Source: a virus (lineage: Duplodnaviria; Heunggongvirae; Uroviricota; Caudoviricetes). Taken from it: DNA of 64,000 nucleotides. The notes under the pieces were generated by a model. That model made no database searches and was not told the origin of the DNA. It was given only the letters and a program-made list of their open reading frames with translations. Position numbers and translations under genes: made by a program. The stretch's first letter is position 1, and each line of letters opens with the position of its first letter. Shown here piece after piece: positions 49,758 through 53,306 of this stretch. The DNA lies in IMG/VR virus record IMGVR_UViG_2563366911_000001. One strand, 5' to 3'.

Positions 49758-50459
49758 TTATTCTGATTCTTGCTCAAAAAACGCGCTAATGAGAGGAAGC
49801 CAATCCTCTGACACTTCACGCGGTCGCGGTTTGCCATGGAAGAAGATTATTCGGCAGTCTTTTGGTAATGCCCCATTCCCCCTGGAGTAGCGCGCACTTG
49901 CATATTTCGAACCAGGTTCCACAACATCGGCCTTGTAACTTACAAACCATCCCGGATACAGATCCTGAAATGCTGGTGTATCATCGCCCATAACCTTCCG
50001 TAAGAACCCCTGATCACCCCAGCATTCAGTAGTAACACAACGAGCAATCCAACCTTCCGGATCTTGCCAGAATGCACTCCAGATATGCGCTTTTACACTA
50101 TTTGGTATCCACAGGGCACCGCTGCCACGATATTGTGGATGGTAAAAATCCCTAAGCATGGTGAAGCTGGTTGGTGGATGCTCTAGGATTGGGCGTATAT
50201 CACCGGCAATAACCGTGTCCAAATCCAGATAGAACAGATCATCGGTTATATCCGGTCGGAACAACTCTATTTTCGCCCACCAGCCACGGCACTTTTGCCA
50301 CTGGTTGATCAATGGGACAACTTTGACGCCAGGTACATGTAAACGCTTCAGGTCTGTCAGGCAAATAATTTCATAGCCTTTTGGCAGTTGATTAACCAGC
50401 CACTGCACATCGGAAGCGTTATAGTCACCACCAGAGCGAAAAACTAAAGCAATCTTCAT
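49758..50459 (-). CDS. DxD-motif protein, possibly a GT-A-like glycosyltransferase
   Basis: 233 aa with LDLDTV. Confidence 0.35.
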
Positions 50460-51148
50460 GCTGCACCATCACCTTTCACTTTCATCAATGTCAGGTTTCC
50501 GCAAAATACGGCACCAGTGTCGATATACTGCTGATTCCAGAATGTCTTCGGGCTTTTCACCGGAGTGTGACCAAAGATAAAACGATCTGCGCCCGAAATT
50601 TCGCCACCAATATCATCCATCGAATCACTGATACGCTCGCGCGCCCAGACAACGTTGAAAAGCGGCACCTCCTTACCGAATTGGTATTCATTATCCGGAT
50701 AGTCGGCATGGGCTATAACGATAGTTTCTTGCCCGGTGTTCAACTCAATGATATAGGGCAGACGCTTTACCAGCTCCACCAGCGCCCAGGCTAATATTTC
50801 CTGATCAGTGTCCAGCATGAAGAACCATTGTCCGCCATTCATTAGCCAGTTATTCACGTTGCCATCTGGACTTAACGCATCAATCATCAGCCGCTCATGG
50901 TTCCCCATCACTGCCCTGAACCAGGGCATCTGCAATAGTTCCAGACATTCGACATTTTCAGTACCGCGATCGATAAGGTCGCCGACCGATATCAGTAAAT
51001 CCTGCGCCGGGTCAAAATCCACACGATGGAGTTCGGACATCAGTCTGGTGTAGCAACCATGCAGATCACCAACAACCCAGACATTCCTGTATTTGGTACC
51101 GTCGATACGGTGATAAATTGTGGGTGCCATCATGTATTCTTCAGCCAT
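50456..51148 (-). CDS. Calcineurin-like metallophosphatase (Ser/Thr phosphatase or ApaH type)
   Basis: GDLHG, GDLIDRG and GNHE motifs. Confidence 0.85.
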
Positions 51149-51756
51149 TCTTTAAGAGTCATCTGCGGAATACCTCCCATTTTCCCGCATGAAACAACGT
51201 CAATCTGTTCACGCGCAGACTGGAATAACAAAGGCAGGTGACTTAGATTTTTTGGCGTGCCGCCGGAGTGAACGCGTGGTTCTTGTGTAGCGTCAACGCC
51301 CACCAGGGCGACATGTTTGAATCCGATATGGAAAGCCAGGTTCAGAGCACCATATGCACTATTGCCGCTGGCAATTTCATTCTCATCTTCGCAAAGGCCG
51401 AAATGTGCGGACCAGCGCCACGCCCACCACTCGGGAGAATTCGTATTTTTTGGCTCCATGCCGCGTTCAGCCACACGACGGAAGCACAGAACGCCATCTC
51501 TGACTTCACGTTCTTTAACATCGGGTAGTGCCATGCAATAACAAACACCACGGCGACGGCGGCCACGACCAACGCGCCGCATATTGTCTGGGGATGGATC
51601 AAGGGTGAAAAAATAAGAAGCGCGGTTAAGCCAGTCGATGGCCCCATTGACCGCTATAATCGGCACTCCGCGCGGCGCAACAAAGTTTGCGGCGCTTGGG
51701 CCACTGCCGACGATAATAACGCGATCACTGCCTCTAAATTTATTCTTGGGAAACAT
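51130..51756 (-). CDS. GT42/DUF115-like transferase (paralog B)
   Basis: VIIVGSGPS...IIAVNGA and [26 protein letters not shown]. Confidence 0.5.
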
Positions 51757-52316
51757 TGAATTGCACTGCTCCTACTTGCATTCAAAATATGTAAATCTGC
51801 GTGTTTTTTGCGGGTATCCAGGAACTGCTGTTGCCATTTTGAAATAGACACCTGCGTTGGATTCCGTAGGGCTTGAGGGTGCGCGCCATGCCAATGAAGG
51901 CCGTTTTGCAGAGAACAGTCATAGCCGACTAATACCACTACTTCAGCCCCTGATTCAGCAGCCAGACTGATAGCCTGCGCGCCGCTATTTACCCCTTCCG
52001 CCGGTCCACAATATCGCCTGTACTCCAACGAAAATGATTTCGCCGCCGCCAGGTTGGCTGTCACTTTGCGGAATCTCCCTCCCGGTATGGTGGATCCGTA
52101 TTGCTTCCACCATGACAAATCACCGGCGTATAAGGCATAAATGTCATCGAACATCTGCCAGGAATTGTTAACCGCGATGATTGAACAGCCAGTTTTTTCT
52201 ATAGCAGCACAGTCCTCACGAGTGAGTGACGGACCGCTACCGACACAAAAAACAGTCCTAGTCGCCCTGGGTGGTATGTTCATTCTCAGCTGCAAATTCA
52301 GCCTCCAGGCGAGCAT
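51654..52316 (-). CDS. GT42/DUF115-like transferase (paralog A)
   Basis: VFCVGSGPSL...IIAVNNSW and NSGAQAISLAAESGAEVVVLVGYD; overlaps paralog B by 103 nt. Confidence 0.5.
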   Translation of the reverse strand: MLAWRLNLQLRMNIPPRATRTVFCVGSGPSLTREDCAAIEKTGCSIIAVNNSWQMFDDIYALYAGDLSWWKQYGSTIPGGRFRKVTANLAAAKSFSLEYRRYCGPAEGVNSGAQAISLAAESGAEVVVLVGYDCSLQNGLHWHGAHPQALRNPTQVSISKWQQQFLDTRKKHADLHILNASRSSAIQCFPRINLEAVIALLSSAVAQAPQTLLRRAECRL

Positions 52317-52479
52317 TCATTTCAGCGATTACAGGGTCCACTACAGCATCTGTTTCCTGTTCATTACGCGGCATGACCGATGCCAGCGACTCATAATTAA
52401 CCTTGGATGACACGATTATTCTCCCGATGTTAAAATGCACTACCACAAAGAGTGTACATGCACTAATTAATTTATTATT

Positions 52480-53058
52480 TTAAGCGACAGACAACCACTT
52501 ATCGCCGTTCAATACATGCTCAATAGCCTCACCCTTTTTAAGGCTTATGTATTCCAGGATGGCGGTAATCGCTTGTTCTGCACCATACGCAAGAACAACG
52601 TAGTAGCCTTCCTCTCTAAGCCTGCGCATCCAGGCGATCTGCTCTTTCGTCGGGGCTTTACCATTTGGTTCTTTAAGCTCAATTCGCATGCCGTGATAAA
52701 TACCGCATGCTTTATCGAGACTCATGTCCGGATAACCTTTTTTCTGCCCTTCAGCCTTCATTTTCCCAGCGGTTGCTTTTGAACGCTTCCCTCCGTTAGG
52801 CGTTGCATGCAACAGATCATAGATGTCAGGGTGCTTGCGTTCGAAGTAATCAAAAATGAAAACCTGCTCGAAGTGCTCGCAATTTCCGTCGCGCAGGTCT
52901 GGGTTCTTTGCCAGTGCTGCAAGTGCCTTCGCATGTGGAGAAACTTCTTTTACCGGCGCAAGCGATAAGAATGGATCCTTTTTGGTTTTTGGCCTGGACC
53001 GCCCCTTATTTCGACGCTCACTAAAAGCCTGAAACTCTTCCTCAGTAAAGCGCAACAT
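52480..53058 (-). CDS. VRR-NUC domain nuclease
   Basis: ...NGG.RS...GYPDMSL...IELK... Confidence 0.6.
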   Translation of the reverse strand: MLRFTEEEFQAFSERRNKGRSRPKTKKDPFLSLAPVKEVSPHAKALAALAKNPDLRDGNCEHFEQVFIFDYFERKHPDIYDLLHATPNGGKRSKATAGKMKAEGQKKGYPDMSLDKACGIYHGMRIELKEPNGKAPTKEQIAWMRRLREEGYYVVLAYGAEQAITAILEYISLKKGEAIEHVLNGDKWLSVA

Positions 53059-53060
53059 AA

Positions 53061-53306
53061 TCAGTCAAATCCTGCCGGTCGCATGCCATATTTACGCTGT
53101 TTTGCGGCCTGCTCTTCCCTGTGCCATTGTGCACACTCAGCGTCACAATAGATGCCTGATTCAATCGGTTCATTGCAGTAACGACACTTCCCTGTAAATA
53201 CCTGACTCACGACCTGTGCCTGCTTTCTGATGTTATCGATGGCCATGTCTTTGAGAGCTTCTAACTGATTCATGCTCAGCTCTGCATCATCAACACGTTC
53301 TGCCAA
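53061..53306 (-). CDS. TraR/DksA-type C4 zinc-finger protein
   Basis: 81 aa, CRYC-x16-CDAEC. Confidence 0.6.
   Translation of the reverse strand: MAERVDDAELSMNQLEALKDMAIDNIRKQAQVVSQVFTGKCRYCNEPIESGIYCDAECAQWHREEQAAKQRKYGMRPAGFD

Follow-up and report, generated by a model that had tools for sequence, protein, structure and literature searches.

A Predicted Four-Enzyme Glycan-Building System of Phage P1, Centred on the pmgL–pmgQ Region, and Its Candidate Acceptors

Introduction

Enzymes of the Maf/GT42 fold use ulosonic acids activated with cytidine monophosphate (CMP), and WaaZ, a distant relative discussed below, uses CMP-3-deoxy-D-manno-oct-2-ulosonic acid (CMP-Kdo). Among phages, mycobacteriophage-encoded glycosyltransferases reportedly glycosylate virions, which Freeman and colleagues are said to have shown experimentally in 2023 (compare PMC11256854). 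Here we describe a block of seven leftward genes, pmgL to pmgQ, at positions 49758-53306 of IMG/VR record IMGVR_UViG_2563366911_000001 (Caudoviricetes), together with the nearby gene dbn; the whole stretch that was analysed, 64,000 nucleotides (nt) long, is called the window below. Three genes of the block and dbn are predicted to form a glycan-building system. Like the mycobacteriophage system, it is phage-encoded, non-essential and co-expressed with structural genes, and it would decorate capsid or tail. In contrast, the mycobacteriophage system uses other enzyme families and serves phages of Gram-positive-type actinobacterial hosts, and its modification has been shown, whereas the target proposed here is inferred.

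About one gene in five of the textbook phage P1 is still without a function. Positions 49600-53500 of the window are 98.3% identical to P1 (AF234172, 78408-82308) and 99.1% identical to Salmonella phage SJ46, and we identify the block as the pmgL–pmgQ region of P1, which is annotated and functionally uncharacterised. The P1 record has the same seven minus-strand genes (pmgL, pmgM, pmgN, pmgO, pmgP, ppp and pmgQ), six of which, ppp being the exception, bear the label “putative morphogenetic function”; the P7 names, in the same order, are upf81.0, upf81.2, hdmA, hdmB, hdmC, ppp and hdmD. An initial annotation, made from the DNA alone, had found no described system that the block would match; it is instead an annotated region of P1 with viable knockouts (PMC10695390; PMC9024508). 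The gene annotations have been available since the P1 genome was published, and phage-encoded glycosylation as such is known. What is new here is the separation of one enzyme pathway (PmgO, PmgP, PmgQ and Dbn; O, P and Q for short, homologs included) from its neighbours, the fusions among its members, and its recurrent position in the neck module of many phages. In the literature we found neither a functional study of the block genes nor any recognition of the cassette.

Results

Four Predicted Enzymes Recur Together

The four genes lie in the window as follows:

pmgO, 51654-52316, minus strand: 220 amino acids (aa), DUF115/Maf/GT42-fold glycosyltransferase-like protein
pmgP, 51130-51756, minus strand: 208 aa, same predicted fold as PmgO and a likely distant paralog of it
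pmgQ, 49758-50459, minus strand: 233 aa, GT8-like (retaining GT-A) glycosyltransferase, predicted
dbn (glt in P7), 58251-59249, minus strand: 332 aa, GT4-like GT-B protein, directly downstream of ban (59249-60619)

We are interested in which of the P1 genes keep company elsewhere. O, P and Q occur without ppp, pmgN, pmgM and pmgL in two unrelated phage types: a podovirus-like contig, in which O and P are fused as one 376-aa protein, and a lambdoid prophage of Citrobacter rodentium. A scan of one genome per species gave 18 loci. In hidden Markov model (HMM) searches, O, P and Q are found no more than a few kb apart in Enterobacterales, Zhongshania, Brevundimonas and Sinomicrobium (Bacteroidota), and P and Q only in Methylophilaceae and in a Longimicrobiales metagenome-assembled genome; the sequence of a Microbulbifer contig with O and P stops too early for a Q to be seen. 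Among 50,697 phage records, PmgO is detected in 73, PmgQ in 31, PmgP in 27 and Dbn in 22. All 22 Dbn-positive records are also positive for PmgP and PmgQ, and the independent lineages among them number about three. Because many loci are related by descent, co-occurrence counts overstate the number of independent observations; open reading frames (ORFs) in the fetched loci were called heuristically. At 50% identity the PmgP family falls into 590 clusters, and a scan of IMG/VR with the PmgP profile returned only P1-like loci that are 99-100% identical.

Several members of the cassette are joined naturally in single proteins. Examples include O+P (P0051), P+Q (P0220, P0287) and Q+P (P0302), and fusions with a methyltransferase, namely Q+P+S-adenosylmethionine (SAM) methyltransferase (P0271) and methyltransferase+P (P0313). 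In the jumbo phage XacN1, ORF373 (L113:5630-6946) joins a TylF-type sugar O-methyltransferase to a Q-like domain. Optional partners of the cassette are SAM or FkbM methyltransferases and a GT-A-like “Nucleotid_trans” protein, the latter in three lineages with about 30-34% mutual identity. The metagenomic phage contigs L107-L109 (112-248 kb; around 9001-12438) have the order O-P-X-Q, and a gene similar to GIY-YIG homing endonucleases lies between their O-like and P-like genes on the opposite strand.

In P1, about 5 kb separate dbn from the block (7.8 kb from pmgQ); dbn shares a transcript with the helicase gene ban, and another C1 operator, Op72, governs the two. Dbn matches Pfam Glycos_transf_1 in its C-terminal domain only (25.0 bits, cut-off 26.4; E 1.5e-5). 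In coliphage EP_H11 the gene order is O, P, Dbn homolog, Q, and this homolog is 48% identical to P1 Dbn (E 6e-107); homologs of Dbn also lie close to P and Q in Buttiauxella and Serratia. Dbn is probably the fourth enzyme of the system. The initial annotation had already grouped the GT-B enzyme beside ban with the transferases of the block, and both the EP_H11 cassette and the co-occurrence (22/22) agree with it. From gene content and fusions we conclude that the putative functional unit comprises four genes (pmgO, pmgP, pmgQ and dbn), whose enzymes would form one glycan-building system, and is not the seven-gene block.

PmgO and PmgP Have a Maf-Like Fold in Their Models

The motifs of PmgO are GSGPS (residues 26-30), NSGAQAISLAAESGAEVVVLVGYD at 110, i.e. 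NSG..A...G...L.GYD (110-133), and HWHGAH (141-146; HWHGxH in the family). PmgP has GSGPS (17-21) and NSAYGAL..GF..VALVGVD (132-155) and is without HWHGxH. These residues are invariant or nearly so in the family alignments. The GSGPS and SG..A....A...G.....L.G.D signatures first read in the two proteins from the DNA alone are real. H141, H143 and H146 of PmgO are invariant and lie 8-13 residues past D133; the only invariant histidine of PmgP is H173. A profile-profile comparison of the two families, made without the O+P fusion sequence, gives 97.6% probability and an E-value of 4.5e-12 over 162 columns, and the two proteins are predicted to be distant paralogs.

We modelled PmgO and PmgP separately with AlphaFold, both with good confidence (predicted local distance difference test, pLDDT: 85.3 and 94.3, respectively). 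The leading structural matches are listed here with their scores for PmgO and then PmgP:

Maf flagellin glycosyltransferase (5mu5): 14.0 and 13.4
Archaeal pterin pyrophosphokinase MptE (8sd5): 11.1 and 12.6
GT42 sialyltransferase Cst-I (2p56): 10.5 and 10.6

The next matches are SteA, thiamin pyrophosphokinases (TPKs) and GT29 sialyltransferases, and in Foldseek searches with the models Maf alone falls below E 1e-3. A structure search had been set as a check on the paralogs, and it ranks Maf first for both. The models suggest a Rossmann-like fold of the Maf/GT42/TPK type.

Such a fold is common to MptE and TPK, and the Pfam match is itself named MptE-like, so one might ask whether PmgO and PmgP are instead ATP-dependent pyrophosphokinases of the MptE/TPK type that activate a small molecule. 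Several observations speak against this. Maf not only ranks first but aligns over 160-164 residues, compared with 109-136 for the pyrophosphokinase-type structures. A combined O+P profile searched against the PDB has GT42/Maf proteins (Cst-II, Maf, Cst-I) as the top nine of the 21 listed matches, at marginal E-values of 0.005-0.12, and no pyrophosphokinase up to E = 10. The TPK metal motif is GDxDS; its first Asp is absent from both proteins, which read GYDCS (PmgO) and GVDAT (PmgP). In addition, the obligate partners of the pair are GT8, GT-A and GT-B proteins and O-methyltransferases of the sugar type, and fusions join several of these partners to P or Q. We regard a pyrophosphokinase role as quite improbable.

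On Pfam PF01973 (cut-off 34.6 bits) PmgO and PmgP are below threshold, with 23.4 and 20.9 bits; the O+P fusion P0051 (44.6 bits) and P0258 (44.1 bits) are above it, and 47 of 48 O/P family members match at E <= 1. WaaZ_KDO_III (TIGR04437) is the sole NCBIfam family that recurs, in 7 of the 48 members (best E 2.9e-4). Its best score is 20.3 bits against a cut-off of 200 bits, and hhalign gives a probability of 8-11%; membership of PmgO and PmgP in the WaaZ family was rejected on this faint similarity. E. coli WaaZ itself scores 29.6 bits on PF01973, and there is a faint precomputed match to PF27901 in the family. PF01973 is thus common to WaaZ and the O/P families, whereas the phage genes are without an LPS (lipopolysaccharide) gene context.

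How do the two proteins compare with the best described members of the fold? Maf has about 630 aa and flanking domains; PmgO and PmgP, with 16-17% sequence identity to it, consist of little more than a catalytic domain of about 200 aa, and no genes for nonulosonic-acid synthesis are found near the cassette in any locus examined. In comparison with Cst-I and Cst-II, the GT42 enzymes of Campylobacter jejuni, the phosphate-binding pair Tyr156/Tyr162 and the catalytic base His188 of Cst-II are not demonstrably conserved in PmgO or PmgP; after the G.D motif PmgO has HWHGxH instead, and PmgP has neither.

The first approximately 16 and the last approximately 20 residues of PmgO are unconserved and have low pLDDT. 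They match the regions where pmgO overlaps pmgN (59 nt, 52258-52316) and pmgP (103 nt, 51654-51756). An alternative start is the ATG at 52283; it may be the true start of PmgO, and at the C-terminus the tail may exist merely because the genes overlap.

RefSeq product names for these proteins are now “alpha-2,3-sialyltransferase,” “norphogenetic protein” (sic) and “glycosyltransferase.” The first, given to PmgO, has no experimental basis. The second is a typographical error from the original P1 note on pmgM that has spread to PmgO- and PmgP-like proteins of many genomes (NC_005856, NC_050152, NC_050153; clusters P0002-P0010 and P0052-P0061).

PmgQ Carries the Hallmarks of GT8 Enzymes

A profile of the PmgQ family searched against the PDB finds AgtA (6mw5, E 6.4e-7), the GT8 structure 5gvv (2.6e-3) and glycogenin (7e-3). 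The DxD of PmgQ (D79-L80-D81-T82), invariant in 29 sequences, aligns with the DxD of AgtA and glycogenin. G148, D149, H208, G209 and P213 are invariant as well, Q150 and P211 nearly so, and the corresponding GDQ and H-x-G-x-x-(K/R)-P motifs align with GGDQG and HFLGQTKPW of glycogenin. PmgQ belongs to PHROG 1962 (“glycosyltransferase”) and matches no Pfam family at E <= 1, Glyco_transf_8 included; the GT8 link comes via the profile against the PDB alone. Set beside glycogenin, AgtA, GlyE and LgtC, PmgQ shows all three of these GT8 motifs but is shorter (about 210-235 aa) and has a PHROG family of its own. PmgQ is predicted to be a GT8-like retaining glycosyltransferase; that the DxD protein of the block would transfer sugars had been suspected from its DNA, and the AgtA match fits. 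In PmgO, PmgP, PmgQ and Dbn, no 19-residue window reaches 1.6 on the Kyte-Doolittle scale, and none of the four thus shows hydrophobicity of the kind that marks a membrane segment.

Position of the Cassette and Its Candidate Acceptors

In at least eight HK97-like lineages (the L096, L105, L106, D3, PAJU2, L116, P0201 and P0042 loci), the cassette lies inside the head-completion cluster:

Pseudomonas L106 and Zhongshania L096: cassette right after the major capsid gene
Ochrobactrum L105: cassette between a gp6-like connector gene and a head-closure gene
D3 (L114 5637-9089): O-like gene between capsid and adaptor genes; a 275-aa protein and a methyltransferase follow later in the neck cluster
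PAJU2 (L115 4974-6917), L116 (6782-8754) and the P0042 locus: O-like gene with a methyltransferase and a protein of 259-290 aa, amid genes for adaptor, closure and tail completion
P0201 locus: cassette among neck genes

In P1 the cassette is directly upstream of the head-completion gene pmgR. The D3-like phages have, of the cassette enzymes, the O-like one only, with a conserved 275-290 aa protein and a SAM methyltransferase. The D3 record splits the O-like gene into orf6.5 and orf7, and a single frame gives a full-length protein with GSGPS and HWHG.H. For D3 orf12 (275 aa), the idea of a GT9 heptosyltransferase found no support in Pfam or in PDB sequence searches. In PAJU2 and Eowyn the O-like gene is labelled “structural protein”; no proteomic source for this label could be located, and it is not used as evidence.

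We tentatively favour late-expressed glycosylation of virion proteins as the role of the cassette. The choice of virion proteins as target draws on two things together, the position of the cassette and the nearest relatives of its enzymes. According to the PDB descriptions, the closest relatives of solved structure glycosylate proteins, flagellin in the case of Maf and Skp1 in that of AgtA. Likewise, 5gvv (GlyE) acts on PsrP, and glycogenin on itself. Counted on the same side are the L003 and L004 loci, where the cassette adjoins terminase or structural genes, the chromosomal copies interleaved with Big_1 adhesins (both described below), and the absence of a membrane-type hydrophobic window from the four enzymes.

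A mechanism might run as follows. In a lysogen, C1 would repress pmgN–pmgQ via Op83 and ban-dbn via Op72, and the genes would be on in lytic growth; the late promoter LPpmgL could add late read-through. PmgO and PmgP, as paralogous cytoplasmic enzymes of the Maf/DUF115/GT42 fold, would probably act as a pair. PmgQ would be a GT8-like, metal-dependent, retaining hexosyltransferase with a UDP-hexose (uridine diphosphate hexose) donor as a working guess, and in P1 the unlinked GT4-like Dbn would join the three. Maf-like enzymes would use a CMP-activated ulosonic acid, which in E. coli K-12 would be CMP-Kdo. To our knowledge, K-12 makes no CMP-sialic acid, and CMP-Kdo is the only CMP-sugar there. 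CMP-Kdo is our working guess for PmgO and PmgP because enzymes of this fold have CMP-ulosonic donors, because K-12 would offer CMP-Kdo alone, and because of the WaaZ matches. While the head is being completed, or earlier, the enzymes would build a short glycan in the cytoplasm on Ser/Thr side chains of the phage's structural proteins, a glycan that in other phages would also be O-methylated. In the laboratory, plaques would form without such a coat.

Several points count against virion proteins as the acceptor. The P1 virion proteome paper makes no mention of glycosylation. Single-gene knockouts are without a plating phenotype. The P1 promoter adjacent to Op83 is an early, C1-controlled sigma-70 promoter and not clearly a late one. 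The cassette also moves among phages with unrelated capsid families (Phage_capsid, Phage_cap_E, Phage_capsid_4 and P1 gp23), and a conserved host acceptor would explain such transfer more easily. All identifiable hosts are Gram-negative, and PmgP is faintly WaaZ-like; both fit an LPS target.

These last points lead to the main rival explanation, the remodelling of an envelope glycolipid. In this view PmgO and PmgP would transfer Kdo in the manner of WaaZ, PmgQ and Dbn would serve as GT8 and GT4 enzymes of the core type, and in the lytic phase the four would change the inner Kdo/core of LPS, or some other glycan carried on a lipid, where the inner membrane faces the cytoplasm. The receptor, which for P1 is LPS core glucose, would be masked or truncated, and superinfection or the trapping of progeny on debris would be blocked. 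GT8 and GT4 are the usual families of LPS-core synthesis. The recurrent WaaZ_KDO_III matches (7/48, best E 2.9e-4), the faint PF27901 match and the score of WaaZ on PF01973 (29.6 bits) point the same way, as do the identified hosts, which are all diderm, and the transfer between phages with unrelated capsids, which a conserved host acceptor would account for. In two loci, L003 and L004, the cassette directly follows the lysis cassette and adjoins terminase or structural genes; adjacency to lysis genes would also suit a change in the envelope. However, no LPS, O-antigen or lipid-carrier gene is present in the about 25 contexts examined, and the enzymes are embedded in head-completion operons, not in moron positions with their own regulation. 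The hhalign comparison with WaaZ is weak (8-11% probability), LPS enzymes of GT8 in the PDB (e.g., LgtC) are not among the PmgQ matches, and C1 repression rules out classical lysogenic conversion. The latent period also seems short for replacement of surface LPS. On balance, we consider an envelope target unlikely.

O, P and Q are also found on bacterial chromosomes, where they are scattered among Big_1 inverse-autotransporter adhesins in Pseudescherichia/UBA7338 and Serratia. In L090:3357-9248 (Enterobacteriaceae UBA7338), L091-L094 and L104:1674-9603 (Serratia plymuthica) they do not form one operon. In L090 the O-like gene is immediately preceded, on the same strand, by an inverse autotransporter of 1178 aa with IAT_beta and seven Big_1 domains. 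The chromosomal copies are also interleaved with other Big_1/Invasin_D3 proteins, and Serratia keeps holin and lysozyme remnants there. These copies may represent a domesticated cassette that glycosylates adhesins.

Could the phage enzymes then act on a host protein as well (an Ig-like adhesin, flagellin or another abundant protein), altering physiology or surface during infection? The top structural match, Maf, glycosylates flagellin, and the interleaving of chromosomal O, P and Q with Big_1 adhesins, with the O-like gene of L090 directly downstream of an inverse autotransporter, would be in keeping with this. But the linkage to adhesins is limited to related Enterobacterales islands that retain the holin and lysozyme remnants, the phage copies lie in structural operons, and E. 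coli K-12 would seem to have no obvious conserved acceptor. A host-protein target is improbable in our estimate.

Genetic data bear on another candidate acceptor, DNA. A table in PMC10695390 lists pmgL–pmgQ as non-essential and cites ref. 73, which is taken to be the PMC9024508 study. In 24 viable pmg/upf deletion mutants, antirestriction is unchanged (PMC9024508). CRISPR interference (CRISPRi) and knockouts agree that the block genes are dispensable for plaque formation, the CRISPRi call on pmgN excepted. Phages do glycosylate DNA with glycosyltransferases of their own (e.g., bioRxiv 10.1101/2023.12.21.572611), and several DNA methyltransferase genes lie a few kb upstream in L004, so the cassette might be imagined to glycosylate or hypermodify the P1 genome against restriction. 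The unchanged antirestriction of those mutants and the non-essentiality of pmgL–pmgQ argue against this, as does the location of the genes among head and neck genes and not replication genes. Beside the cassette there is no pathway for 5-hydroxymethylpyrimidine or another acceptor base in any locus examined, and the fold relatives act on proteins or glycans. We also know of no hydroxymethyl-base pathway in P1. Of all the explanations considered, DNA modification is the least probable. The initial annotation had named DNA, virion proteins and a host surface as possible targets; DNA has become the least likely of these, given the unchanged antirestriction, and virion proteins and a host surface remain.

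If virion glycosylation is taken beyond P1, a wide range of Gram-negative tailed phages (P1, D3-like Pseudomonas phages, lambdoid and HK97-like prophages and several jumbo phages) could glycosylate their own virions with a Maf-like plus GT8-like cassette, possibly with CMP-Kdo and O-methylated sugars. This broader reading is a possibility that we hold with more reserve than the one for P1 itself.

Three to four genes of P1 (pmgO, pmgP, pmgQ and dbn) are thereby set apart as one predicted enzyme pathway that is widespread in Gram-negative phages, as a rule within the head-completion cluster. A glycan on the virion, if present, would bear on how phages used in transduction, delivery and therapy are recognised by antibodies, how stable they are in serum, how they adsorb and which hosts they infect. 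It would bring new enzymology (Maf-like plus GT8-like) to phage biology, and the system would be the first for virion glycosylation outside the actinobacteriophages. Kdo as donor would make it a new kind of protein glycosylation; LPS as target would make it a lytic-phase receptor-masking system. The question is directly testable either way because single-gene knockouts of P1 exist.

Neighbouring Genes of the Block

The other four genes of the block are:

pmgL, 53061-53306, minus strand: 81 aa, TTG start (P1 annotates an alternative start codon)
pmgM, 52480-53058, minus strand: 192 aa, VRR-NUC (PD-(D/E)xK) nuclease
pmgN, 52258-52413, minus strand: 51 aa from a GTG with the Shine-Dalgarno sequence GGGAGA (P1 annotation); ORF open to 52446
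ppp, 50456-51148, minus strand: lambda-type Ser/Thr protein phosphatase (NinI-like), placed between pmgP and pmgQ in P1-like phages only

All seven ORFs are present, co-directional and packed on the minus strand as first described, with successive spacings of +2, +66, -59, -103, -19 and -4 nt. Compared with the lambda NinI phosphatase and the VRR-NUC nucleases, Ppp and PmgM are clear members, while PmgL matches PHROG 54 only. Ppp matches the lambda phosphatase (PDB 1g5b) over residues 11-229 with an E-value of 1.5e-94, and Pfam Metallophos with 9e-16 (59.3 bits). PmgM matches PDB 4qbl (“VRR-NUC”) over residues 75-180 (E 9.6e-18), GYPD...IELK included; it scores 21.2 bits on Pfam VRR_NUC (cut-off 23.8) and falls in PHROG 5702 (Holliday junction resolvase, 4.5e-27). 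PmgL has the C4 zinc-finger pattern CxxC...CxxxC and an E-value of 1.7e-13 to PHROG 54 (“DksA-like zinc-finger protein”), with no Pfam match (zf-dskA_traR included) and no PDB support.

PmgN is a small acidic ORF of 51-62 aa, the first gene after Op83, in PHROG 2350 (unknown function). It has no informative match in family and sequence searches, and pmgN is seen in P1-like phages only. Genome-wide CRISPRi scored pmgN as essential (efficiency of plating 1.4e-2), and its deletion is reported as non-essential (PMC10695390 table). We suspect a polar or roadblock effect in the CRISPRi call, which is possible because the target lies just downstream of Op83 and PpmgN.

Might all seven genes nevertheless be one system, in which nuclease, phosphatase and zinc finger cooperate with the transferases? 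The genes are co-directional and tightly packed under common C1 control, and the overlaps of ppp with pmgP and pmgQ suggest translational coupling. Outside P1-like phages, however, the cassette never occurs with homologs of ppp, pmgL, pmgM or pmgN in the loci examined. In D6, a relative of P1, ppp (L111 4990-5682; 89.7% DNA identity) lies among small genes like those of the lambdoid nin region, at a locus without pmgO, pmgP and pmgQ. Thus ppp appears to move as an independent gene, and because it is absent from cassettes elsewhere and alone in D6, we read it as an insertion into the four-enzyme system. The block is moreover split by Op83 and PpmgN (see below), and none of its seven proteins matches a defence or anti-defence model of PADLOC at E <= 0.01. 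We find a seven-gene system very improbable; ppp, pmgM, pmgL and pmgN are best seen as neighbours with other predicted functions and not as members of the cassette. Comparative genomics thus removes the metallophosphatase, the VRR-NUC nuclease and the zinc finger from the module in which the initial annotation had placed them.

Control of the Block

The control elements are:

C1 operator OpmgRb, 49691-49707, plus strand: operator scan and P1 annotation
C1 operator OpmgRa, 49740-49756, minus strand: operator scan and P1 annotation
Hairpin, 49704-49731, minus strand: 11-bp stem followed by a T-run, 26 nt past the pmgQ stop codon, terminator-like
C1 operator Op83/Oppp, 52457-52473, plus strand: CATGCACTAATTAATTT, four mismatches to the consensus, in the 66-nt gap between pmgM and pmgN
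PpmgN, predicted sigma-70 promoter, 52486-52512, minus strand: inside the 3' end of pmgM (position carried over from the P1 record, locus 5887-5913 plus 46599)
C1 operator O26/Op82, 53364-53380, plus strand: divergent control region of pmgL and gene 26

The window has 13 C1-operator-like sites, compared with 0.39 expected by chance. Op83, identical in sequence in the window and in P1, is missing from the operator scan list because of its four mismatches; it lies directly downstream of the annotated promoter PpmgN, which a simple consensus promoter scan of the window did not recover. Upstream of pmgL, P1 annotates sigma-70 promoters, Op82 and the late promoter LPpmgL (about 53395-53413), and across this control region the window, P1 and P7 share 98% identity. 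Since Op83 and PpmgN divide the block between pmgM and pmgN, it is predicted to consist of two nested C1-repressed units, pmgL-pmgM and pmgN–pmgQ, with late read-through possible. The single leftward operon first proposed is therefore right in the direction and packing of its genes and had missed Op83 and PpmgN.

At the other end of the block, a terminator flanked by C1 operators had been described, and both operators (49691-49707 and 49740-49756) and the hairpin are found. OpmgRa and OpmgRb form an inverted pair around the hairpin and, by P1 annotation (Op86a/b), control pmgR-pmgS. In RNA folding, the hairpin has a dG of -19.6 kcal/mol (z = -7.5), and 0 of 200 shuffles fold as well; it was found by folding and had been missed by a consensus terminator scan. 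It overlaps the annotated PpmgR promoter of P1, and it could end pmgQ transcripts, sit in the pmgR leader, or both. In the RNA fold, the inverted operators can themselves pair as a 9-bp outer stem around the hairpin. The 66 nt of 49691-49756 thus combine sites for the repressor, the promoter of pmgR and a structure resembling a terminator.

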